A stretch of 64,000 nucleotides of DNA, from assembly GCA_965369385.1 (NCBI GenBank), contig CBDUQP010000002.1, forward strand, positions 783-64,782, in the 5' to 3' direction. The stretch is from an uncultured Phycisphaerales bacterium. Lineage in GTDB: Bacteria; Planctomycetota; Phycisphaerae; SM23-33. Shown piece after piece: positions 7,764-42,974 of the stretch (position 1 is the first letter of the stretch; every line of letters begins with the position of its first letter). Both the position numbers and the translations under genes were made by a program. Below the pieces are notes generated by a model, which worked only from the letters and a program-made list of their open reading frames with translations, ran no database searches and was not told where the DNA came from.

Positions 7764-7888
7764 CTCTGCACCTCGCAAGCAAGCACAATGGATTAGCAGT
7801 TTGAGCAAATCGTGGCCGAGCATGTTCTCCGTTGGTTCGACGATGAAACCGTAGCGATTCAGCGACGCTGAAGTATGTAGATGAACAT

Positions 7889-8173
7889 TTGGATGAGCCG
7901 GAATTGTTGACAAACAGCGAGTTGGCCAATCGGGCGAGTTTCTCCCGCTCGCAGTTTCAGGTGAAATTTCGTCAGTCGACCGGTATGTCTCCCGGCGAGT
8001 ATGTCATGCGCAGGCGGATCGAACAGGCGTCGAAGTTGCTTTCCGGCGGGCGACACTCTGTGACCGAGGTCGCCTTTCGACTTGGTTTTTCCTCCAGCCA
8101 GTATTTCGCGACGGTTTTTCGGAAATACACGAATAAACTCCCGTCCATGTTGACTCCTGCCGGCCGCAAATGA
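7889..8173 (+). CDS. AraC-family HTH-only protein (C-terminal DNA-binding domain without a sensor domain; possible gene remnant)
   Basis: 94 aa: LTNSELANRASFSRSQFQVKFRQSTGMSPGEYVMRRRIEQASKLLSGGRHSVTEVAFRLGFSSSQYFATVFRKYTNKLP is a complete AraC double HTH. It uses a TTG start. An in-frame stop lies only ~45 nt upstream, so no N-terminal effector domain exists. Confidence 0.5.
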   Translation: MDEPELLTNSELANRASFSRSQFQVKFRQSTGMSPGEYVMRRRIEQASKLLSGGRHSVTEVAFRLGFSSSQYFATVFRKYTNKLPSMLTPAGRK

Positions 8174-8333: not shown

Positions 8334-8719
8334 GGAGTCTGACATGAATGGCACTGCCGTCCGTTTTGGCCGTTCTTTGCCGTTCGGGCCGGAGGTCCGA
8401 TGGGCAGTAAGCCGGGCGGTGACCGAAGGGAACCCCCGGAACCGGATCGGACCCCCCAATATCAGAACCCCGCAAGGGGTGGCGAGAGAAGCTTCACAGC
8501 GGGTTGGATGCCTGATAACTGGGCAAATTTTGTGCCAATTGTTCGTGTCACTTCGCAGGATGGCGTCTCCCCCCGGCCCTTCGGGACGGGGAGTTATTTG
8601 TCGCGTATCCGGGGGCTGCGCCGCGACTTACGTCGCAGCTTACCCCCGGCTAACCGCCCATCGGACCTTCGGCCCGAACGGCAAGAAACACGGACGGCAG
8701 CGCCATTGGAGTCTGACAT
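8334..8719. mobile_element. MITE-like non-autonomous element (core 8346-8707, 362 bp) with ~65-bp imperfect terminal inverted repeats, flanked by a perfect 12-bp direct repeat GGAGTCTGACAT (8334-8345 and 8708-8719)
   Basis: Left end GAATGGCACTGCCGTCCGTTTTGGCCGTTCTTTGCCGTTCGGGCCGGAGGTCCGATGGGCAG. The reverse complement of the right end is AATGGCGCTGCCGTCCGTGTTTCTTGCCGTTCGGGCCGAAGGTCCGATGGGCGG. The 12-bp direct repeat sits immediately outside both ends. The interior has no credible ORF and is GC-rich and hairpin-rich. Confidence 0.7.
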
Positions 8720-10509: not shown

Positions 10510-11548
10510 TCAGCCTTCGCTATTGGGGCCGGCGAGCGTGGAGCCTTCTTCGAATTCACCCGGCAGGATGAGCCTGGACCTGCATGGCTTGTCCGGGGAT
10601 TCCAATCGCCCCAGCAACATGGCCGCGGCCTCGTAGCCCATGTCGTAGCGGGCGTAGCTCATTCGCGTCAGTGCCGGCCAGATAACTTCCATGAAGTGAT
10701 CGCCATCGCAACACGCCAGACCGTAGTGAACGCCCGGCAGCATACCGCGTGTCTGCATAACGTCACGAGTCCAGGCGGCGTATGACGGCGATTGTGCGAT
10801 CACGGCCACATCCGGAGCAAGCAGCGATGCAAGCTCGTCGCTTCGCCCTTCGGCATCTTCGCGTCGCTGTGCGGTGAACTCTCGCACTTCGAGCCCCGCT
10901 TCGGCTGCCCCCGAGATTACACCGCGGTATCTCGCCTGGGCGGAGTAGTGAGGTTGCAGGCCACCTTCGGTGGTTTCCATATCGAACGAATACCAGAGGA
11001 TACTGCTGTAGCCCTTCTCCGCGGCCGCCAGCGCCAGCGTCCTGCCGACAGTCAACTCGTCACGCCTCACGCATCCCTCATCCCGCCAGACATTGTTGTC
11101 CAGCCAGATGCACCTGTCCTTGAACTCTTCATCCACGCGGGCGGTCACCTTATCGGACAAGACATCGAGCAGGATGATCCCATCCAGGACATGCTCCTCG
11201 AAGATGCGAGAATGCGTCCCGTCGCGGGTATCGCTGATCCTTATAAGCCCCATATACCCCTGAGCGTTGAGGCAGTCGTTAATGCCGAGAAAGAACTCGT
11301 ACGCCGGCAGGTACTTGAAGCGTTTCTTGCCAGGCTCGCTTCGGGGCAGGACGCCTATGGCCTTCGTTTTGCCGGTTCGCATCGCCCGGGCGACCAGGTT
11401 CGGGCGGTAATTCATATCCCTGGCTGCATCGAGCACCAGCTTCTTCGTCTCGTCCCGGAATCTACCGCGATTGTTCAGCACGTGGCTGACGGTCGGCAGC
11501 GAAAGGCCGGTCTTCTGGGCGAGTTGTTTTGAGTGTTACGCGGGCCAT
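10510..11548 (-). pseudogene. LacI-family transcriptional regulator interrupted by a 1-bp insertion (frameshift) in an A4 run just after the start codon
   Basis: ATG at 11548-11546 gives MARVTLKTTRPEDRPFAADRQPRAEQSR*. A -1 shift after MARVTLK restores ..QLAQKTGLSLPTVSHVLNNRGRFRDETKKLVLDAARDMNYRPNLVARAMRTGKTKAIGVL.., near-identical to the intact paralog at 17847-18887. The shift is in the CTCAAAACAACTC run (plus-strand TTTT 11527-11530). The ORF track's 10510-11481 is the internal GTG-initiated remainder. Confidence 0.7.
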
Positions 11549-11569: not shown

Positions 11570-11586
11570 CGATAATAACGTTATAT
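11570..11586. promoter_or_regulatory. Candidate LacI-type operator, palindrome GATAATAACGTTATATC (perfect 10-bp core ATAACGTTAT)
   Basis: Read from the sequence, ~22 bp upstream of the LacI-1 ATG. Related AACGTT-centred palindromes occur at 18901-18924 and 12661-12689. Confidence 0.45.
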
Positions 11587-11717
11587 CAATTATATCGCTA
11601 TTCCGGGTAAGCACAAGCTCATTCCCGGCCGCCGATGGCCTCGCCCGGCGGCGGCCAGCGCACAGCAACGCCTCGCAGTTGCCCGCGAGGCGTTGGTATA
11701 TTGGCGAAAGGGGGATA

Positions 11718-12393
11718 TCAGAAGCTGCGTTTACGGCGAAGCAGCGTCAGCAGCCCGCCAAGGCCCAGCAGGCTCATCGTGGCCGGCTCGGGGACGGCGT
11801 CACATCGTATCTCACTCAGGCCGGCAATCGTGCTACCGTAACTGGTTGTGATGTTGAATTTGACCAAGCGGGCGTCGGCCGCGGCAGAGAAGCTGCTCAG
11901 ATCAATCGTCTGTCCGAAGTCAACGTAGTGCAGCCCAGGGGCTTCTGTGAACGTGAAGTTGCCCAGCGATGTGAAGGCGCCGCCTACGCTGGAGGCTATA
12001 AGGATTTCCACGTTGTTCGCCCCCCGGTCCGTCATGCCGAGTTCGTTGTAGTTCCACACCTTGAATGAATCCAAATCGTAGTTGGCTTCAAGATCAAAAG
12101 TGATGTCCACCGGCAGGAGATCATCAGGATCACCGAACGTGGCGTATGTAACCCACATGGTGCCTGCGGTGCCCGGCAACTATGGTGTGGTAACATGGAA
12201 GCCCGTAGCCTCGTCGAATCCGCTCCCGTCAACGACATGAATGCCAGTGCGATCTTAGCTGCCGGCCAGGACCAGTTCGGATGAGACGCCTTCGATGGTG
12301 ACTCCCGTAATCGTCTGGCCATAGACCGATGAACCACCAAGTGCCGAGATCACGGCCAATATGCAACATAACAGCGATGCGAATCTCTTCATT
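11718..12393 (-). pseudogene. PEP-CTERM-anchored exported protein with two in-frame stop codons (TAA 12256-12258, TAG 12181-12183) in an otherwise continuous frame
   Basis: Manual translation: MKRFASLLCCILAVISALGGSSVYGQTITGVTIEGVSSELVLAGS*DRTGIHVVDGSGFDEATGFHVTTP*LPGTAGTMWVTYATFGDPDD...AVPEPATMSLLGLGGLLTLLRRKRSF. It has a signal peptide at the N-terminus and a PEP-CTERM sorting signal at the C-terminus, with the same frame throughout. The ORF track only shows the 153-aa tail (11718-12179). Confidence 0.6.
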
Positions 12394-12660
12394 TTACGCT
12401 CCTCTCATATCATATGAACCAAATCGTGGCCCAACCCTTGTGGCAGGGCACACATCCTTGATTAGCACGACAGCGCTAGATTTGGCGATTGCGCCCTTGG
12501 CCGGAACGTAGTTGCAGGAGTTACGTCGCGTTCGCACCTGATGGTCTTGCCAAGACAAACGACTTACGAAGAAGTAGCGCTGTCGTGTTAGAGAAGTAGA
12601 ACGTTGAATCGCCATCGCGATTTGCCTCTGCATCGAGGTAACGAGCTAGTGCTATGTAGA

Positions 12661-12689
12661 TACAACGCTATACCAATACAACGTTATAT
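12661..12689. promoter_or_regulatory. Two adjacent AACG(T/C)T half-palindromic sites (TACAACGCTATA / TACAACGTTATAT), candidate LacI-type operators upstream of the PEP-CTERM gene
   Basis: Sequence similarity to the ATAACGTTAT operators at the two LacI paralogs. Confidence 0.3.
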
Positions 12690-12945
12690 TAATCGTGAAT
12701 TGCAATTCTGTCAAGGCGCAATTCGGTGACAGTCTCATCGCCAAGAATCGCCAAACCCGCCAGCGTCAGATACGCCTGGGCCGACAACCCCATCTGCAAT
12801 CTCTACAACCGCGAAAACCTGCCCGCCTGCCCGTTTAGAACAGATGCAGACTAACCTGAATCTGACCTGCCCAACGAGCAACAGCCCCCTTGCCGAGACA
12901 TCATGAGTCGCGGCCGAGGGGCTGTTCTGATCAACGATCCGGGTA

Positions 12946-15900
12946 TCACTTCGCCAGTTGGGCTGATGCGCCGATGATGAAGGAGATTGTGTTGTTGGTC
13001 TTCGCACTGACGATATCGATCGTCTTGATCTCGACTTTCGGGCGGGGATTCTTCCACTTGAGCATATAGGCGCAGATCGGCATCTGAATCTCGTTGCGAC
13101 CCACCCAAGCCACCTGAGCGTTCTTGTCCTTCGATGGAAGCGGCACGAACCACCAGTTTCTCATGTGAGTGCCATACTTCACGGGCACCATCGCAGTCTT
13201 CCCGTCAGCATAGTTGATCTGAAAACTGAAACATGTCTTGCCCACACCAGCCGACCAGCCGCAACCGAACATGAAGTACAACGCCTTTGCCTTTACGCGG
13301 CACTCTATCCCGTCAAGGCGATTAGGAAGGTTAGGAGTGTGCTTACCTCGCAATACAGCCAACCCGCTGATATTGAACGGTATACCTTTGAACTTCACAC
13401 GCTCGCCAAGTGGCAGTTGTGCGAGATTATTGATTCCGTTCACCAGCTTTGTTTCGTCGGTCCCATCTATCTCGGCATGCGTACTGTGATTCGCAACCGG
13501 CTTCATCGACAGCGGCTTGAACGTCCCAGTGACGGCTGACTTGCGATTGTCGAAGGCGGAGAAACCAGCTCCAACGTTTGAAAGCAGCGCGACGGCGTAG
13601 TTCTTGCCCACGCCCACTGCATCTTCAAGGTGCCAGTTCACCTGGTCCAGAATAAGCCTGCCCTTGCCTACCCTCATGCATGCTAACGCCACTGAGGTCT
13701 TCTTCAAGGCGTCTTCCACTTTCCCAGTAACGTGCATCCACTTATCCGGCGTCACTACAAGCACATCGTCATCGGCAATGCCCGACAATACGTAGCTGCA
13801 TATGGGAGCGACAACTCTGGTACAGTCTGCGCGCGGGCCGTATCCGTCCCAGTTGCCCACACGCCACCACAAGTCGTATTGCCCCATGCCGCTGGTAAGA
13901 TTGCTGTCGGCAACTCTCACGCCCTGATGGGGAACGATTGCCTTCGCCGCCACCTTTGGCCCGCCAAGAGCAGCCACGAGATTAACATTTCGGTCTGTCA
14001 GATTACGAAGGATTACCGTGCCGCCATTGTGCAGATACTTCCGCAAGGCGGCAACCATATCAGGCGACTTCACATCTTCGCTCTGAGCGATAAGCACCTT
14101 GTACTTGCCGAGCCTCTTCAAACCGTCAATTTCCAGCGGCATGGTGTACTTCAGCCCAAGCTGATCGCAGCGTGTCTTGATCCTTGTATTGGTAGATGCC
14201 ACAAGGCCAATGCGTTTGGGCGTTGGATTTCGCCTGCCAAGATAAACCAGCATGTTCTGCAGAAGCTTTCGGGCGACTGGGTCAGATCGCAACTTCTCAG
14301 CCACCAGCATCTGGCACCAAATCACACGCCCCTTGCCCTCGAATGTCTCCATCAGTGCCGGCCAGCGAAGGCCGAGGGGATCACCGGCTTGGGCGATCAC
14401 ACGGTAATTCCCCTGTGTGGTCGGAATCATCCCGCGAGCCACCCAATGATCCTCGCCCCACCATCGCAGATCCTGCGACTTCAGCCCTGACAGGATCGGA
14501 TGATCAGTGCGGCTGGCGAACGTGATGGTTGCATTGCTGTTGAATATGCGCGTGGTTCGGCCGGGTTTGCGAAGGCGAATATGCGAAGTCTTGTTCTGAC
14601 GCAACACTATCACATTTCCGCCGCGATCCAGAAACTTGCCTAGTGAGGGCCTATTGATCTGTGAATTCCACTCGACATCGTCAGTCAGACCCGGCCCAAC
14701 GATAACCAGATCCAAACGCTTGATCGATTTGGCGTCGAGCGTCTTGAGTGACTTGAACTTCACGCCTGTCTTGCGGGCATCTTTGGCAAACGTGCCCTTG
14801 GGATCGTACACGCCTATCCGCATCCGCCACGGAGTCGTGATCCCGCGATACGGAAACACCGTCACCTTGCGAGACGACTTGCTCCACTGCTTCTTGCCGG
14901 CACTAACGCTCGCCCGCCACACATAGCCTGTGCGTTTCTTTGCCTTCGGCGCATCGAACTCGATGGTGATGTATTTGATCTCGCCTGCAGGCATGTCATA
15001 CGTTTGGGTGCGAGACAATACGGGTGGGGCGCCAGGATTATCGCTGGGCACTAGCTGCCAATTGACCGCGAGCTTCTGCGGGTACCACACCTCGTTAGCC
15101 AGTCCGAAATGCAGCTTCACCTTGCGGCCGCTGATGAAATTCTGGTTATAGTTCTTCGCCAGCAGCTTAACAGGCTCGGCCACGCGGCTGTTGTACGGCT
15201 TGACGGCAGGGTCGGCTGGGTTGATCACCGCGATATTGCTCATGCGGTAGATATCGGTGTGAATGCGATTGTTGTCTCTGATTATGGGATTGCCACGATA
15301 GTACGGCCCGGCGAGATAGAAGTCTTCCCCGCCGAATGCCGCATAGCTGCCATTGGGCCCGCGGAAGCTATTAAAAAAATCCTCGCCGACGATCACCGGC
15401 TTGTCGCGCTTGCCGTACTTCTCGCTGCTGCCGGCGTGATGATTATCCTTGAGCCACCAGAAATCATTTGGCACGTACCAGCGCGAAGCCAGGTTCGACG
15501 GATAGTGCCAATCGCGGAACGCAGACAGACCCCATGAATCGTCGCCGGCGGCCATCGTCACAAAACTGCTCTTGTCGGTATCTCTCAGAATGCGGAAGAT
15601 ATCCTTGTAGTGCTTCGCCGGCGGCCAGGCGGGTTTGTCCCACTTCCCAAACGGGACAGACTCGTTGGCGATACCGTATGCAATCACGGAGGGATGGTTT
15701 CGGCTTGCCTTTGCAATGCGGCGGTTGAGTTCCTTGAACGCCTTCCAGTAGCCATCGCTCATCGTGTAGTTGGCGGTCAGCCACATTTCGTTTTCCTGCC
15801 AGATCAGCATACCGAGCTTGTCGGCCTCTTCCAGCAGTTCAGGCGATGCGGGCACACAGTGCCAACGAAGGCAGTTCAACCCCCAACTCTTGTACTGCTT

Positions 15901-16911
15901 CATTTGGTGGCGGACGGAACCTCGGTCAGTACGTATCCAGGCCAGCCCCTCGGTCTGCCGACGAATCGGTGCTCGCACGCCGTTGAAGCGGATTATTGTG
16001 CCATCGACCCATGCCTCGCGGAAACCAAAACGCGTGAGCTTCTCGTCAACGGTCCTGCCGCCGACTTTCAGCACGGTCTTGAAATCATACAGGTACGGAT
16101 CGTGCGGGAACCACAGGTGCGGCCGGGCCCATGGCTTCTCGATGGTGACGGTCTTGGTCTCGCCTGGTTTGAGTCTGACGCCGCTCGAAGGCATGGCAAG
16201 CGCTACGTTCTTTCCGTCGGCAATGACGGCTGAATTCAGCGTTACCTGCTGCGGAACAGCCGACTTGTTCGTAATCTCAACTTCGGCGATCAGCTTCTTC
16301 TTGCGGAACGATGGTCGAACGTAGACATCGCTGACGTGCACGTTTGGGTGCGACTTGATCCAGGCTTCGTAATACAGGCCGGTACCGCGCTTACTGACAA
16401 ACACGTTCGGCAGGGACCAGGGCCTGCCACCTGTTTTCGTGGCACACACGCGGGCACTTTCCATGCCGATCAAGATCTCATTGTCCTGACCAAACCTGAT
16501 GTGCTTCGTAATATCCGACGCCCACGGGACGCAGATGAATGAGTTTTCGCCGATGTACTGCCCGTTCACGTACAGCATGGATCGAAAACCGATACCATTG
16601 AAGACGGCTTCGACTCTGCCGGGGCTCATGGTGGCTGGGATTTGCACTACCTTGCGATACCACACGCGATCCGCACCCGCCGATGCTCCACTGAAACCGT
16701 GAGGCGTCTTCACCTGCCGCCACTTGGTCTTGCTCACGTCAGGCATGACGAGCTTGTTGCCTGCACTCTGGGTCCATGCCTGCCATGCACCGTTCAGGCT
16801 GACCTTGTCGCGAAATCGCGAACCAGTCGCACTATCCGCCCGAACCCCACAAGCGGACAACAGCAGGCACGCCAATGCAATTACCCCGACAAAACTCGAT
16901 CGCATCTTCAT
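12946..16911 (-). CDS. Glycoside hydrolase family 2 protein (beta-galactosidase/beta-mannosidase-like) with a large C-terminal extension, secreted
   Basis: GH2 sugar-binding and TIM-barrel regions (..LNGAWQ.., ..WGLNCLRWHCVPASPELLEEADKLGMLIWQE.., acid/base ..GIANES..). The likely start is MKMRSSFVGVIALACLLLSACG (signal peptide) at 16911, preceded by GGGAGA. The ORF track's 16965 start would add 18 non-signal residues. About 1320 aa. Confidence 0.75.
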   Translation of the reverse strand: MKMRSSFVGVIALACLLLSACGVRADSATGSRFRDKVSLNGAWQAWTQSAGNKLVMPDVSKTKWRQVKTPHGFSGASAGADRVWYRKVVQIPATMSPGRVEAVFNGIGFRSMLYVNGQYIGENSFICVPWASDITKHIRFGQDNEILIGMESARVCATKTGGRPWSLPNVFVSKRGTGLYYEAWIKSHPNVHVSDVYVRPSFRKKKLIAEVEITNKSAVPQQVTLNSAVIADGKNVALAMPSSGVRLKPGETKTVTIEKPWARPHLWFPHDPYLYDFKTVLKVGGRTVDEKLTRFGFREAWVDGTIIRFNGVRAPIRRQTEGLAWIRTDRGSVRHQMKQYKSWGLNCLRWHCVPASPELLEEADKLGMLIWQENEMWLTANYTMSDGYWKAFKELNRRIAKASRNHPSVIAYGIANESVPFGKWDKPAWPPAKHYKDIFRILRDTDKSSFVTMAAGDDSWGLSAFRDWHYPSNLASRWYVPNDFWWLKDNHHAGSSEKYGKRDKPVIVGEDFFNSFRGPNGSYAAFGGEDFYLAGPYYRGNPIIRDNNRIHTDIYRMSNIAVINPADPAVKPYNSRVAEPVKLLAKNYNQNFISGRKVKLHFGLANEVWYPQKLAVNWQLVPSDNPGAPPVLSRTQTYDMPAGEIKYITIEFDAPKAKKRTGYVWRASVSAGKKQWSKSSRKVTVFPYRGITTPWRMRIGVYDPKGTFAKDARKTGVKFKSLKTLDAKSIKRLDLVIVGPGLTDDVEWNSQINRPSLGKFLDRGGNVIVLRQNKTSHIRLRKPGRTTRIFNSNATITFASRTDHPILSGLKSQDLRWWGEDHWVARGMIPTTQGNYRVIAQAGDPLGLRWPALMETFEGKGRVIWCQMLVAEKLRSDPVARKLLQNMLVYLGRRNPTPKRIGLVASTNTRIKTRCDQLGLKYTMPLEIDGLKRLGKYKVLIAQSEDVKSPDMVAALRKYLHNGGTVILRNLTDRNVNLVAALGGPKVAAKAIVPHQGVRVADSNLTSGMGQYDLWWRVGNWDGYGPRADCTRVVAPICSYVLSGIADDDVLVVTPDKWMHVTGKVEDALKKTSVALACMRVGKGRLILDQVNWHLEDAVGVGKNYAVALLSNVGAGFSAFDNRKSAVTGTFKPLSMKPVANHSTHAEIDGTDETKLVNGINNLAQLPLGERVKFKGIPFNISGLAVLRGKHTPNLPNRLDGIECRVKAKALYFMFGCGWSAGVGKTCFSFQINYADGKTAMVPVKYGTHMRNWWFVPLPSKDKNAQVAWVGRNEIQMPICAYMLKWKNPRPKVEIKTIDIVSAKTNNTISFIIGASAQLAK

Positions 16912-17057
16912 CTTAATCTCCCGTATGTTCCGAGTGCGGACAACCCGCAAGCCGCCCCTTGGCATAGCGTGATAGGCGCAGGTATGTATCTGTGGAATTC
17001 AGTCGTGCGTAAAGCAAAACGCAGGCGGATTCAAATCGCGGTTGTCCCGCCGCTTAG

Positions 17058-17786
17058 TTACGGCCTGACCAATGGCCCCCAGGGGATAGTGACGCCAGGC
17101 GCACCCGTACCCCACCCCAGTGGGGTCGCGGTAGCTTCATCCAGAGGACGTAAACTACCGTCAGCATAGGTGAAGTTGCATTTGTTCGCATGCCTGTATG
17201 CCGGCCATTGGCCCCAACGGAATATCGTCATGGCGGCACCGGTGGGAGGAGGGCTAAAAGAATAGGGATTGGTGACGTCATTGGATATGTCGCCAAGCAT
17301 CGCCAACTCCGACGGATTCCGAAGATCGCTCTCGTTAATCTTGTAGCACATTTCATTATCGGGGTTGGAGGGAACAGGATCGGGTATGCGGGGGGCCAAC
17401 CAGTAATTATAGCCGATATCCATGCTCCGGCAGGGGCCGTATTCACGCTTGACCGACGGACACCTGATAAGCCATCGGGTGGACTCGTAATATTCCTCTT
17501 CACCGAGCGGCAGTATGCACCAGGGCAGGCCCGACCCTGTATATCCACCAAAGCCATCGTTACCTCGCCAGAGACCGTTGGTTTCCGAAGGCGGATAGTT
17601 ACCGTTGTTATCCCTCACGTAGTCGACTAACCGCAACCCCAGAGCACGATGATGGCTCATGCACTCGACCCCTCGCGCCATATCCAGAGCACGGTTAACC
17701 GCGGGCAATAGCAGCGACGCGAGAATAGCAATAATCGCGATCACCACAAGTAACTCTATTAGTGTGAATGCTTGTCGTTTAATCAT
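17058..17786 (-). CDS. Prepilin-type N-terminal cleavage/methylation domain protein, DUF1559 (H-x9-DG) family
   Basis: [30 protein letters not shown] pseudopilin N-terminus and C-terminal [14 protein letters not shown] (H-x9-DG). Family abundant in Planctomycetota/Lentisphaerota/Kiritimatiellota. Confidence 0.85.
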
Positions 17787-17846: not shown

Positions 17847-18887
17847 TCAGGATTCCATCTGGGGGCCAGGAAGCGTAGACCCCTCCTCAAATTCACCGGG
17901 CAGTACCAATCTCGACCTGCACGGTTCGTTCGGTGATTCCAATCGTCCAAGCAGCATGGACGCTGCCTCGCGGCCCATGTCATAGCGGGCATAAGCCATC
18001 CGCGTCAGCGCCGGCCATGTGTCTTCCAGATAGTGATCGCCATCGCAACACGCCAGACCATAGTGAACACCCGCCAGCATACCACGCAACTCCATCACAT
18101 CACGAGTCCAGCAAGCAAACGATGGTGCATGGGTGATCACGGCCGTGTCGGATGTGATCAGCGATGCCAGCTGGTCGCCCCCGGCTTCGGCATCTTCGCG
18201 CAACTCCGAAGTGAACTCGTGCACTTCAAGCCCTGCTTGCCTGGCACCTTCCAGCACTCCACGACGCCTGGCCCCGGTAGAATAGTGACGCGGTGAACCT
18301 TCGCAAATTGAATCAAGGTCCGAGGAATACCAGACGATGCTGCGATAGCCTTTCTCCGCGGCCTTCAAAGCCAGCGTCCGGCCAACAGCTTCCTCGTCAC
18401 GCCTTATGCACCCGGCATCCCGCCAGACATTGTTGTCCAGCCAGATGCAACTTTCATTGAACTCATCGTCCACGCGTCGGCTCACATCATCCGGCAAGAC
18501 ATCAATCAGGATAATCCCGTCCACCGCATGCTCCTCGAACACGCGCGAACGCGACCCGTCGCGGACATCGCCAATCCTCACAAGACACAACACATATCCC
18601 TCGGCATCGAGACGGTCGTTTATGCCCAGAAGGAATTCGTACGCCGGGAGGTACTGAAAGAGTTTGTGCCCTGGCTCGTTGCGAGTCAGCACACCAACAG
18701 CCTTCGTCTTGCCAGTCCGCATAGCCAGGGCAGCCAAATTCGGCTTGTAGCCCAACTCACTGGCGGCAGCTAGAACCAGCTTCTTCGTCCTGTCGCGATA
18801 GTTCCCACGCTCGTTCAGCACGTGACTAACCGTCGGCTGCGAGAGCCCTGTCTTCTGGGCGATCTGCTTGAGTGTTACGCGAGCCAT
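17847..18887 (-). CDS. LacI-family transcriptional regulator (intact paralog)
   Basis: MARVTLKQIAQKTGLSQPTVSHVLNERGNYRDRTKKLVLAAASELGYKPNLAALAMRTGKTKAVGVL.. HTH plus periplasmic-binding-fold effector domain. The ORF track begins at TTG 18902. ATG 18887 with AGAGGA at -12 is the more likely start. Confidence 0.8.
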   Translation of the reverse strand: MARVTLKQIAQKTGLSQPTVSHVLNERGNYRDRTKKLVLAAASELGYKPNLAALAMRTGKTKAVGVLTRNEPGHKLFQYLPAYEFLLGINDRLDAEGYVLCLVRIGDVRDGSRSRVFEEHAVDGIILIDVLPDDVSRRVDDEFNESCIWLDNNVWRDAGCIRRDEEAVGRTLALKAAEKGYRSIVWYSSDLDSICEGSPRHYSTGARRRGVLEGARQAGLEVHEFTSELREDAEAGGDQLASLITSDTAVITHAPSFACWTRDVMELRGMLAGVHYGLACCDGDHYLEDTWPALTRMAYARYDMGREAASMLLGRLESPNEPCRSRLVLPGEFEEGSTLPGPQMES

Positions 18888-18900
18888 AATTCCTCTAATC

Positions 18901-18924
18901 AATAATCATAACGTTGTGGTTATT
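18901..18924. promoter_or_regulatory. Candidate LacI-type operator AATAATCATAACGTTGTGGTTATT (10/12 symmetric around AACGTT)
   Basis: Imperfect palindrome 14 bp upstream of the LacI-2 start, suggesting autoregulation. Confidence 0.4.
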
Positions 18925-19095
18925 ATATCATAACGAAATGCCCTGTCAATCCCATTTGTTCACGACACCCCCGACGACAACTTCACAACCCGCACGCAAC
19001 ATCTGGAATAATTGTCAAATACACACGCAAACCCTCTTGCGTAATCTCGAAAACAGGAGTATAAAGCAATCAACTGCATCGAGGCTCTATGCACT

Positions 19096-20193
19096 ATGGA
19101 TACAAAACAGATACAACCTCCACAACCACGCTATCTTAGCGTAAAAAACGCCCTGACAGAGGAGATACGCTCCGGCGACCTCACCCCTGGCGATAAGTTA
19201 ATGTCTGAAAGGGCATTACAGAAACATTTCAGCGTCAGCTATGCCACCGTCGCAAGGGCTCTCAAGGAACTCGCCGACGCCGGACTCATCGTGAGAAAGT
19301 GGGGAAAAGGCACATTCGTCACCGATGCGCCCCAGACCGTCATGAACATCGCGGTCACCTTCAACGATATCCACTCCCCCAACGATCCATACCTGCTCCC
19401 GATCACAAACGGAATCTGCCAGGCGGCAGCGAAGCTCAACTGGAGAAGCCAACTCTACCCCATGCCAGGATCGCAAATGTTCAGTGGCGGCAGCCAGAAC
19501 CTGCTGGCCGCCCTGCTCAACGAAGGGCGCATCGGCGGAGTCATCTCCTGCGATCCAAGCCCGCCGGAAGACATGGACCGCCTGCGATCCATGGGATGCC
19601 CCGCGGTATCCGTACTCAACAGCTATCCGCAATCTGGATCGTCATGCGTTATCGCGGACACCGCCAGCGGAGCAGAACAGATAATCAAACACCTTGTCGA
19701 CCAACTCGGCCATCACAAACTGATGCTCGTCATGGGCGGTAAACGCAACAGATCCGCACGAGTAAGCCGCGCATCGGTTCGCCTCTGCGAGGCACTGCTC
19801 GATCAATGCCGCCAGAGGGGAATCCGCTTCAAAGACAGCAATATCGTATACGAAGGTTTTAGATGGAGCAATGTCGCTTATGCGGTCACCGAGCGTTTGC
19901 AGGGGCCCGACCGCCCCAGCGCAGTTGTCTGCATATCCGACAGCGTAGCCATGAAAGTAGTGGAAACCGCAACACAATTGGGACTCTCAGTCCCACAGGA
20001 TCTCTCCGTTGTCGGCTGGGGAGACCCTATCGATGGCCTGAACCTGAGCTCCGTCCGCGTGCCCTATATGGATATGGGGCGCCAGAGCGTGAACATGCTG
20101 AATCAATTGCTGCAAGGTGAGGGACCGACCGAAAGCAGAGCCCCCGTAAAGCTCATGGCCAGAACCACTACCGCCCAAGCCCCCTGCAGCTAA
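19096..20193 (+). CDS. GntR-family HTH regulator fused to a LacI/PBP-type sugar-binding domain
   Basis: N-terminal GntR wHTH (..LMSERALQKHFSVSYATVARALKELADAGLIVRKWGKGTFV..) followed by a periplasmic-binding-protein-like domain. Confidence 0.75.
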   Translation: MDTKQIQPPQPRYLSVKNALTEEIRSGDLTPGDKLMSERALQKHFSVSYATVARALKELADAGLIVRKWGKGTFVTDAPQTVMNIAVTFNDIHSPNDPYLLPITNGICQAAAKLNWRSQLYPMPGSQMFSGGSQNLLAALLNEGRIGGVISCDPSPPEDMDRLRSMGCPAVSVLNSYPQSGSSCVIADTASGAEQIIKHLVDQLGHHKLMLVMGGKRNRSARVSRASVRLCEALLDQCRQRGIRFKDSNIVYEGFRWSNVAYAVTERLQGPDRPSAVVCISDSVAMKVVETATQLGLSVPQDLSVVGWGDPIDGLNLSSVRVPYMDMGRQSVNMLNQLLQGEGPTESRAPVKLMARTTTAQAPCS

Positions 20194-20213
20194 TACACTG
20201 ACTGGAACACACC

Positions 20214-20576
20214 ATGCCGCCTGCCTTCCAAGTAACAAGAACCGTGCACACACCACACAGCACCGAATTCGGCGCTCCGCTGTCGTTCATGCGTTACCTC
20301 GGCAGCGGACTGCGAAGAGAAGAAACGCTCGCATACCAAGCCGGGAGCGATCTGACGGTCGACCATCACGTTCGCGCATCTGATGATAACGGGCAAACCT
20401 GGACCGACGAGATAAACTTCGGGCCGTTCCTGACCACAGGATACGCCGATATCGTAGCCACAGGCCCTGGCAGGTTCCTGTGCGCCTTTGACTGCACACC
20501 ACCACAACCATGGACACAACACGCGGCGCACTGGATTGGCGTCGTAGATGTTACCGTAGAACAAGAAAAGGAATAA
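20214..20576 (+). CDS. BNR/Asp-box repeat fragment (sialidase-like C-terminal remnant?)
   Basis: 120-aa ORF containing a canonical Asp-box SDDNGQTW, too short for a functional glycosidase. It is followed at 20582-20836 by a second short ORF (MSLEIKGTGLIYRNPIP...) carrying an FRIP-like YRNP motif. Confidence 0.3.
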   Translation: MPPAFQVTRTVHTPHSTEFGAPLSFMRYLGSGLRREETLAYQAGSDLTVDHHVRASDDNGQTWTDEINFGPFLTTGYADIVATGPGRFLCAFDCTPPQPWTQHAAHWIGVVDVTVEQEKE

Positions 20577-38741: not shown

Positions 38742-38754
38742 TGTTCAGCGATAG

Positions 38755-38937
38755 CACGCATAAGCGAAAATGGGAAGCGAAAATGGGGACTGTACCGATT
38801 CTGGGACTGTCCCCACTTTCGCGTCGTGCGCTATCTGACGCAGCATACGCTATCGACCGCAAAAGCGGGGACAGTCCCAACATCGGGACAGTCCCCGTTT
38901 TTGCTCGTCTTTGATCCGTCCCCGCCACATGTGGAGA
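38755..38937. repeat. REP/BIME-like structured repeat, copy A (two inverted ~46-bp arms, each built from GGGGAC(A/T)GTCCCC palindromes)
   Basis: Arm 1 is GCGAAAATGGGGACTGTACCGATTCTGGGACTGTCCCCACTTTCGCG at 38777-38823. Arm 2 is its near reverse complement at 38859-38904. Sits immediately after the CoA-transferase stop. Near-identical copies at 41200-41390, 42646-42756 and partially at 49641-49734. Confidence 0.8.
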
Positions 38938-41199: not shown

Positions 41200-41390
41200 C
41201 TCGCGGTGGCTCGCATGTGCGAAAATGGGAAGCGAAAATGGGGACTGTACCGATTCTGGGACTGTCCCCACTTTCGCGTCATACGCTATCTGACGCAACA
41301 TAGGTTATCGACCGCAAAAACGGGGACAGTCCCAGAATCGGTACAGTCCCCGTTTTTGCTCGTCTTTGATCCGTCCCCGCCACATGTGGC
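41200..41390. repeat. REP/BIME-like structured repeat, copy B (most complete copy)
   Basis: TCGCGGTGGCTCGCATGTGCG-AAAATGGGAAGCGAAAATGGGGACTGTACCGATTCTGGGACTGTCCCCACTTTCGCG...GCAAAAACGGGGACAGTCCCAGAATCGGTACAGTCCCCGTTTTTGC-TCGTCTTTGATCCGTCCCCGCCACATGTGGC. Starts 5 bp after the regulator stop codon. Confidence 0.8.
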
Positions 41391-42603: not shown

Positions 42604-42645
42604 CGCGGATGACACGTCAGCGCGACAAGCGGTGACGCACAATCG

Positions 42646-42756
42646 AGCGAAAATGGGGACTGTCCCGTCGTTGGGGACTGTCCCCACTTTCGCGGCGTAC
42701 GCTATCTACCGCAAAAGCGGGGACAGTCCCAGAATCGGTACAGTCCCCGTTTTTGC
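42646..42756. repeat. REP/BIME-like structured repeat, copy C (shorter spacer, variant arm 1)
   Basis: GCGAAAATGGGGACTGTCCCGTCGTTGGGGACTGTCCCCACTTTCGCG...GCAAAAGCGGGGACAGTCCCAGAATCGGTACAGTCCCCGTTTTTGC. The spacer is shortened, consistent with a deletion between the GCTATC direct repeats. Lies after the oxidoreductase stop. Confidence 0.8.
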
Positions 42757-42974
42757 TGCCTGACAACGGCACCTCCACTTCTAATCCGGGAATACTACAA
42801 TTCTTCAATATCCACTATTCTCTGTTCCTCGCGGGCAACATCGACCAGAAAACCTACGAGATGCCCGTAGATGGAATCTTCCAGGAAGGTAGCCGAAATC
42901 GATGGTGCCTGGCCGCGAATGACCTGCATGAAATCATTCACCACGATGGTGTTCCGCTGAAGCGATGTGAAAAA

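Follow-up and report, generated by a model that had tools for sequence, protein, structure and literature searches.

The sugar-responsive repressors of the LacI/GalR family, such as E. coli LacI, PurR and RbsR, combine an N-terminal HTH with a periplasmic-binding-protein-like core, and their operators are classically built on AACGTT, with CG at the centre. In the +1 frameshifting of prfB (RF2), the P-site tRNA on CUU-U re-pairs with the message in the +1 frame. Poly(A)/poly(T) tracts are enriched at the 5' ends of prokaryotic genes, where they are capable of efficient silencing (PMC2831843). The contingency tracts of Campylobacter and Neisseria are ~7 nt or longer (PMC4965091, PMC4085013). In Listeria inlA, A6 changes to A7 at ~1e-7, and the interrupted A2GA4 allele yields no detectable revertants (PMC2831843). 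Here we describe a LacI-family repressor gene, lacI-A, which is probably a genuine and very recently inactivated duplicate that decays as a module together with the adjacent PEP-CTERM surface-protein gene. The window referred to below is the whole 64-kb stretch of DNA that was analysed.

As it stands, lacI-A (10510..11548, minus strand) is disabled by a +1 insertion. GAGGA and a TATAAT box lie ahead of its start codon, the minus-strand ATG at 11548-11546. The first seven codons are MARVTLK, followed by AAAA, and the frame then goes on as TTRPEDRPFAADRQPRAEQSR up to a TAG at 11464-11462; direct translation of 11462..11548 (minus strand) gives 28 codons, MARVTLKTTRPEDRPFAADRQPRAEQSR, and then this TAG. 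When one A is removed, an uninterrupted frame of 345 codons runs to its end at 10510. The restored product, 345 aa long, carries the LacI HTH (PF00356) at residues 5-50 (E = 2.8e-11, 43.5 bits against a cut-off of 27) and the Peripla_BP_3 core (PF13377) at residues 194-337 (43.2 bits against a cut-off of 26.5), and the HTH match is present only with one A removed. The first-pass annotation had read MARVTLK followed by a frameshift, and had stated that deletion of one A restores a full-length LacI regulator; both statements were reproduced, the former from the ATG at 11548-11546 into the A4 run at 11527-11530, and the latter with 345 codons and both Pfam matches.

A repressor of this type requires the HTH and the core on one polypeptide. 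In lacI-A, the frame from ATG 11548 stops after 28 codons, and no start codon of the core frame lies ahead of the HTH recognition helix. Public gene callers give only a truncated product of 308 aa (P0001, 'Peripla_BP_3'). The head of restored LacI-A, '...GLSLPTVSHVLNNRGRFRDET', is almost identical to 'GLSLPTVSHVLNNRGRFREET' of the outgroup protein P0004, and its first 25 residues include 23 that are identical in the intact paralog, in agreement with the near-identity noted earlier. Judged from its sequence, the restored frame is not a chance ORF, as 338 open codons with a dN/dS of ~0.2 against the paralog cannot arise by chance.

The intact paralog, lacI-B (17847..18887, minus strand, 346 aa), opens a same-strand cluster and shares 70.7% identity with restored LacI-A over 345 aa. 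When the two genes are placed in register at the DNA level, they are 7340 apart over 11251-11529 and 7339 apart over 11529-11548. This one-base change at 11529 locates the indel in the A4 run (11527..11530, minus strand; TTTT on the plus strand), where the first-pass annotation had also placed it. At the position of the run lacI-B reads AAG CAG, and the frames of lacI-B and of three outgroups (P0003-P0005) are uninterrupted across the lesion site. The intact state of lacI-A would be A3, that is, AAA CAA, encoding Lys-Gln.

The comparison of the two copies also bears on the age of the lesion. dN/dS between lacI-A and lacI-B is 0.17-0.22, with dS of ~1, and their identity at codon positions 1, 2 and 3 is 78.6%, 87.2% and 56.2%, respectively. 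Such a dN/dS indicates that purifying selection acted on both copies during almost the whole of their divergence. A-specific and B-specific replacements number 14 vs 19, 17 vs 18 and 23 vs 14 with the three outgroups, none of these differences being significant; against the outgroup majority they are balanced (11 vs 13), and the ancestral head residues are kept better by lacI-A than by lacI-B. No relaxed constraint was seen in lacI-A, as judged by dN/dS (~0.2), by the balanced rates and by the lack of a second lesion in the ORF. About 3.2% of random substitutions in the lacI-A ORF create a stop. With one lesion in 1035 nt, the neutral divergence since inactivation would be less than ~1.4-3.9% (95% bound, assuming indel:substitution ratios of 0.05-0.2). 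Because the rest of the frame is flawless, the inactivation is taken to be recent; the damage to lacI-A appears to be either very recent or, as far as the frameshift alone is concerned, artefactual.

Outside the source contig, the collections that were searched yielded no close relative of lacI-A. A protein search with restored LacI-A returned the two copies on the source contig and otherwise only sequences of <=38% identity, and neither a scan of species-representative genomes nor a metagenome scan found a close relative. The best NCBIfam match is RbsR, with 82 bits against a cut-off of 382, and there is no named equivalog. With its nearest relatives outside the contig at 36-38% identity, LacI-A belongs to an unsampled LacI subfamily.

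On the minus strand, the gene order is lacI-B, a prepilin-type N-methyl protein gene (17058-17786), a gene for a GH2 beta-galactosidase-like enzyme of 1339 aa (12946-16965), a 550-bp spacer, the PEP-CTERM gene, a hairpin and lacI-A; the N-methyl protein and GH2 genes belong to the lacI-B cluster. The PEP-CTERM gene is a single gene that is transcribed separately from lacI-A. Between the two lies a G+C-rich hairpin of 10 bp, AACGCCTCGC-N8-GCGAGGCGTT (11666..11693, minus strand), read directly from the sequence, which is likely a transcript boundary though it lacks a T-run; it was not called by the terminator scan. The gene after lacI-A is convergent and encodes a 593-aa protein. No compositional anomaly or foreign island was found in the lacI-A region. 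A codon-usage scan separated sense from antisense frames poorly and provides a rough map only.

Several other features of the window were recorded. Divergent from lacI-B is a gene for a regulator with a GntR-HTH and a periplasmic-binding-protein core (19096-20193, plus strand), and three sugar-type regulators, this one, lacI-A and lacI-B, thus lie within 9 kb. An open frame of 124 codons at 20202-20573 (plus strand) contains a BNR/sialidase-like 'SDDNGQTW' motif but matches no Pfam family and lacks a convincing start codon, and is possibly a fragment of a gene. Upstream of the gene for the 593-aa protein, a gene-poor stretch of 950 bp contains a 45-nt inverted repeat (8372-8416 / 8645-8689), the arms of which are 89% complementary and separated by 228 nt. 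A short ORF directly after an Fe-alcohol dehydrogenase gene (7847-8170, plus strand) encodes only an AraC-type HTH_18 with no sensor domain, and may be either a stand-alone HTH protein or the remnant of a longer AraC regulator. Furthermore, a dispersed intergenic repeat of ~187 nt occurs at 38748-38934, 41203-41389 and 42644-42760, with two copies 93% identical and the third partial; it is built of nested palindromic units, AAAACGGGGACAGTCCC...GGGACTGTCCCCATTTT, resembles REP or MITE elements and creates spurious short ORFs.

The gene upstream of lacI-A (11718..12392, minus strand) encodes a small, secreted PEP-CTERM/DUF4457 (discoidin-like) surface protein. Its 224 codons lie in one frame, which is interrupted by two nonsense codons, so that it reads as a pseudogene, a fact that the first-pass annotation had missed. 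The first is a TAA at codon 46 (12255..12257, minus strand), at the position of a near-invariant Phe in an F-x-R motif; the second is a TAG at codon 71 (12180..12182, minus strand), in a variable column where homologs have Gly, Asp, Glu or Asn. When both codons are read through, the product aligns end to end with ~45 homologs, which are mostly intact and ~210-235 aa long and cover 87-100% of it, and the family-invariant residues are otherwise all kept. Public gene calls contain only the C-terminal 146 aa (P0007), without the signal peptide. Both lesions are substitutions, which rules out homopolymer miscalls as their origin. Stop-codon reassignment was considered for the internal stops and rejected: TAG, TAA and TGA end 12, 10 and 9 genes, respectively.

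Synteny between LacI and DUF4457 genes was not found at the loci of the DUF4457/PEP-CTERM homologs (L008-L010). A distant LacI relative, P0006 (~35% identity), has a PATR-repeat PEP-CTERM protein encoded directly after it (L011 6001-8719, L012 4049-6767), in a neighbourhood of Planctomycetota type (PSCyt2/PSD1/DUF1501). Given this adjacency, an association of LacI regulators with PEP-CTERM genes may be a recurrent one. The host is probably a PVC-type bacterium, judging by the PEP-CTERM and N-methyl genes of the window, by homologs that are named as Planctomycetota and by the planctomycete-type genes beside those homologs.

Taken together, the lesions comprise two substitutions and an insertion, all three of them between 11527 and 12257, within ~730 bp and in two adjacent genes. 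One of the explanations in the first-pass annotation was a homopolymer sequencing error, according to which lacI-A is intact in the organism, with A3, and the fourth A arose in the consensus. Errors of this kind classically alter the length of a homopolymer by one base, the source seems to be a single 65-kb contig with no replicate assembly, possibly part of a metagenome bin, and a lone indel in a flawless and constrained ORF, with dN/dS of ~0.2 and balanced rates, is what an error would leave. However, A4 is short, and the assembly handles such runs well: across the 46.8 kb of the 32 intact genes there are 349 homopolymer runs of at least 4 nt, none of which causes a frameshift, including 65 runs of at least 5 nt (the longest being 8 nt), so the error rate per run must be very low. 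Moreover, a consensus error in lacI-A leaves the two nonsense substitutions in the adjoining PEP-CTERM gene unexplained.

The position of the lesions is a further point against an error. No other split gene was found on inspection of the rest of the window, and a generally error-prone assembly was rejected on the basis of the clean runs in intact genes and the lack of any other split gene. Three independent errors within 730 bp and none elsewhere are improbable unless local coverage has collapsed, and the composition here is normal. As a rough estimate, if three random errors fell on ~57 kb of coding sequence, the other two would fall in the same 1.7-kb module with a probability of ~(1.7/57)^2, or ~1e-3. 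Poor local coverage in a metagenome assembly could nevertheless make errors of several kinds cluster at the lesions. The proposal of a sequencing error thus survives in weakened form, the error-free runs and the substitutions in the neighbour counting against it, and we consider it unlikely while keeping it as a serious alternative. Recent pseudogenisation, which had also been proposed, is favoured by the death of the neighbour through two nonsense substitutions, by the clustering of the lesions and by the pristine frame past the frameshift.

A possible functional connection between the two damaged genes comes from their promoters. The motif AYAACGTTRT has exactly three matches in the window, compared with 0.18 expected, and none of 100 shuffles reached three; all three sites are located at or just downstream of the -10 box of sigma-70-like promoters. 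In the lacI-A promoter, which has a TATAAT box (11589-11594) and a weak -35, the operator-like perfect palindrome ATAACGTTAT (11575..11584, on neither strand in particular) lies 4 nt downstream of the TATAAT. The PEP-CTERM promoter region (12664..12714, minus strand) contains TTGACA-17-TAATAT at 12714..12686, and the operator-like site ACAACGTTAT (12678-12687) abuts its -10 box; a second, imperfect operator-like copy (12664-12677) is located 16 bp from that site. The lacI-B promoter region (18908..18949, minus strand) consists of TTGACA-16-TATAAT, a 12/12 match with an extended TG, and carries the operator-like site ATAACGTTGT (18908-18917). When extended, the PEP-CTERM promoter site matches the lacI-A site at 13/14 positions.

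From these sites we infer that lacI-A and lacI-B may form an autoregulated repressor pair sharing one predicted operator type, and that the PEP-CTERM gene would belong to their regulon, the shared motif being the one tie between lacI-A and this putative target. The first-pass annotation had suggested that the regulator controls a surface-protein operon. The surface-protein part of this suggestion is upheld by the same operator-like palindrome at the PEP-CTERM promoter, but what stands there is a single, separately transcribed pseudogene and not an operon.

The PEP-CTERM leader is unusually long (~290 nt, window 12392-12686, minus strand) and contains a 16-nt inverted repeat (12463-12478 / 12575-12590, 94% complementary). 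No known RNA element was found in the lacI-A locus or in this leader by Rfam search, the best match scoring 19.5 bits against a gathering score of 46.7.

It was also proposed that the A run is a slippage-prone phase-variable switch. According to this explanation, which can also be put as 5'-homopolymer gene inactivation, A3 is the ON state and A4 the OFF state, and toggling between them relieves or imposes repression of the regulon. The run lies at the extreme 5' end of the gene, where poly(A)/poly(T) tracts are enriched and silencing is efficient (PMC2831843), and the regulator is tied to a surface-protein gene through the shared motif. The tract is, however, just 3-4 nt long, below the ~7 nt of recognised contingency tracts and at the length of the stabilised inlA allele, and lacI-B reads AAG CAG, so that no tract is conserved. 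In addition, the putative PEP-CTERM target carries two irreversible nonsense codons, which leaves nothing to control. The proposal thus finds no support, and a reversible switch is considered highly improbable. A weaker version, in which the A3/A4 run is a low-frequency reversible ON/OFF site, the population is mixed and the assembly caught the OFF allele, is given marginally less credence still. If it were true, the range of such switches would come to include far shorter tracts, and a regulator from an uncultured PVC-like bacterium.

The same run of A could in principle be overcome during translation. In this explanation, a +1 shift on CUC-AAA-A makes full-length LacI-A, or else an HTH-less core, started at GTG 11481 or GTG 11436, modulates LacI-B through mixed dimers. 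From AAA, tRNA-Lys is able to pair again without mismatch on the AAA of the +1 frame, the downstream frame of 323 codons is intact, and gene callers predict a product of 308 aa. Nevertheless, ACA, which occupies the A site, is a common codon (19% of Thr codons and ~1% of all codons), there is no stop codon at the site and no GGAGG-like sequence in the preceding 18 nt, and the context is ordinary, with 33 in-frame AAA-A contexts in intact genes. The frames of lacI-B and of outgroups P0003-P0005 are unshifted. As for the HTH-less product, the internal starts lack a Shine-Dalgarno-like sequence, whereas the true starts of lacI-A, lacI-B and the PEP-CTERM gene have GAGGA/GGAG. Recoding in either form has, in our estimation, only a slender chance of being correct, comparable to that of the low-frequency site.

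The explanation that we prefer, namely recent loss of a duplicated regulator together with its probable target, can be outlined as follows. A spontaneous one-base insertion would have changed AAA-CAA to AAAA-CAA at codon 7/8 of lacI-A. The normal start would now give a peptide of 28 residues, and with the HTH head no longer joined to the sugar-binding core, no repressor would be made. The PEP-CTERM gene and lacI-A are presumed to be a regulator-target pair that is no longer needed and is undergoing joint decay. With two lesions against one in lacI-A, the target may have been the first to die. LacI-B, whose DNA-reading head is nearly identical and which shares the operator core, probably covers the remaining regulatory need, and selection against the loss of lacI-A would thereby have been lifted. 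With the probable target already non-functional and LacI-B able to occupy the same predicted operators, the loss of lacI-A would have been tolerated.

In terms of annotation, the locus should be described as a LacI-family pseudogene beside a PEP-CTERM/DUF4457 pseudogene, and not as genes for a 308-aa 'Peripla_BP_3' protein and a 146-aa PEP-CTERM protein. The lesion in lacI-A matters little beyond this. The locus is a small and clean case in which a regulator is lost along with its probable target and the paralogous module stays intact, and it provides AYAACGTTRT as a candidate operator for an otherwise unsampled LacI subfamily.

The locus resembles each of the described systems in part. With the LacI/GalR family (E. 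coli LacI, PurR, RbsR), restored LacI-A shares the N-terminal HTH and the periplasmic-binding-protein-like core; lacI-A also has a candidate CG-centred palindromic operator that would overlap its own promoter, and it is located near a GH2 beta-galactosidase-like gene. It differs from the family in that it is interrupted and gives no HTH-plus-core polypeptide, as well as in having no named equivalog and a nearest outside protein that is just 36-38% identical. Listeria monocytogenes inlA (A6/A7, 8-aa product) and lacI-A are alike in that a one-base poly(A) change within ten codons of the start leaves a very short peptide, but the inlA tract is 6-7 nt long and measurably unstable (PMC2831843), whereas that of lacI-A is 3-4 nt, the length of the stabilised inlA allele. 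Like prfB (RF2), lacI-A presents a P-site tRNA, here on AAA-A, that is able to re-pair in the +1 frame; unlike prfB, it has an A site with neither a stop nor a hungry codon and lacks a Shine-Dalgarno-like stimulator ahead of it, and neither the paralog nor the outgroups share the shift. The closest correspondence is with ordinary bacterial pseudogenes, which arise by small indels or nonsense mutations in redundant or dispensable genes. Apart from the poor sampling of its lineage, lacI-A has nothing that sets it apart from these: a disabling lesion lies in one copy of a duplicated regulator, further decay is not yet seen, and the linked neighbour is disabled too.
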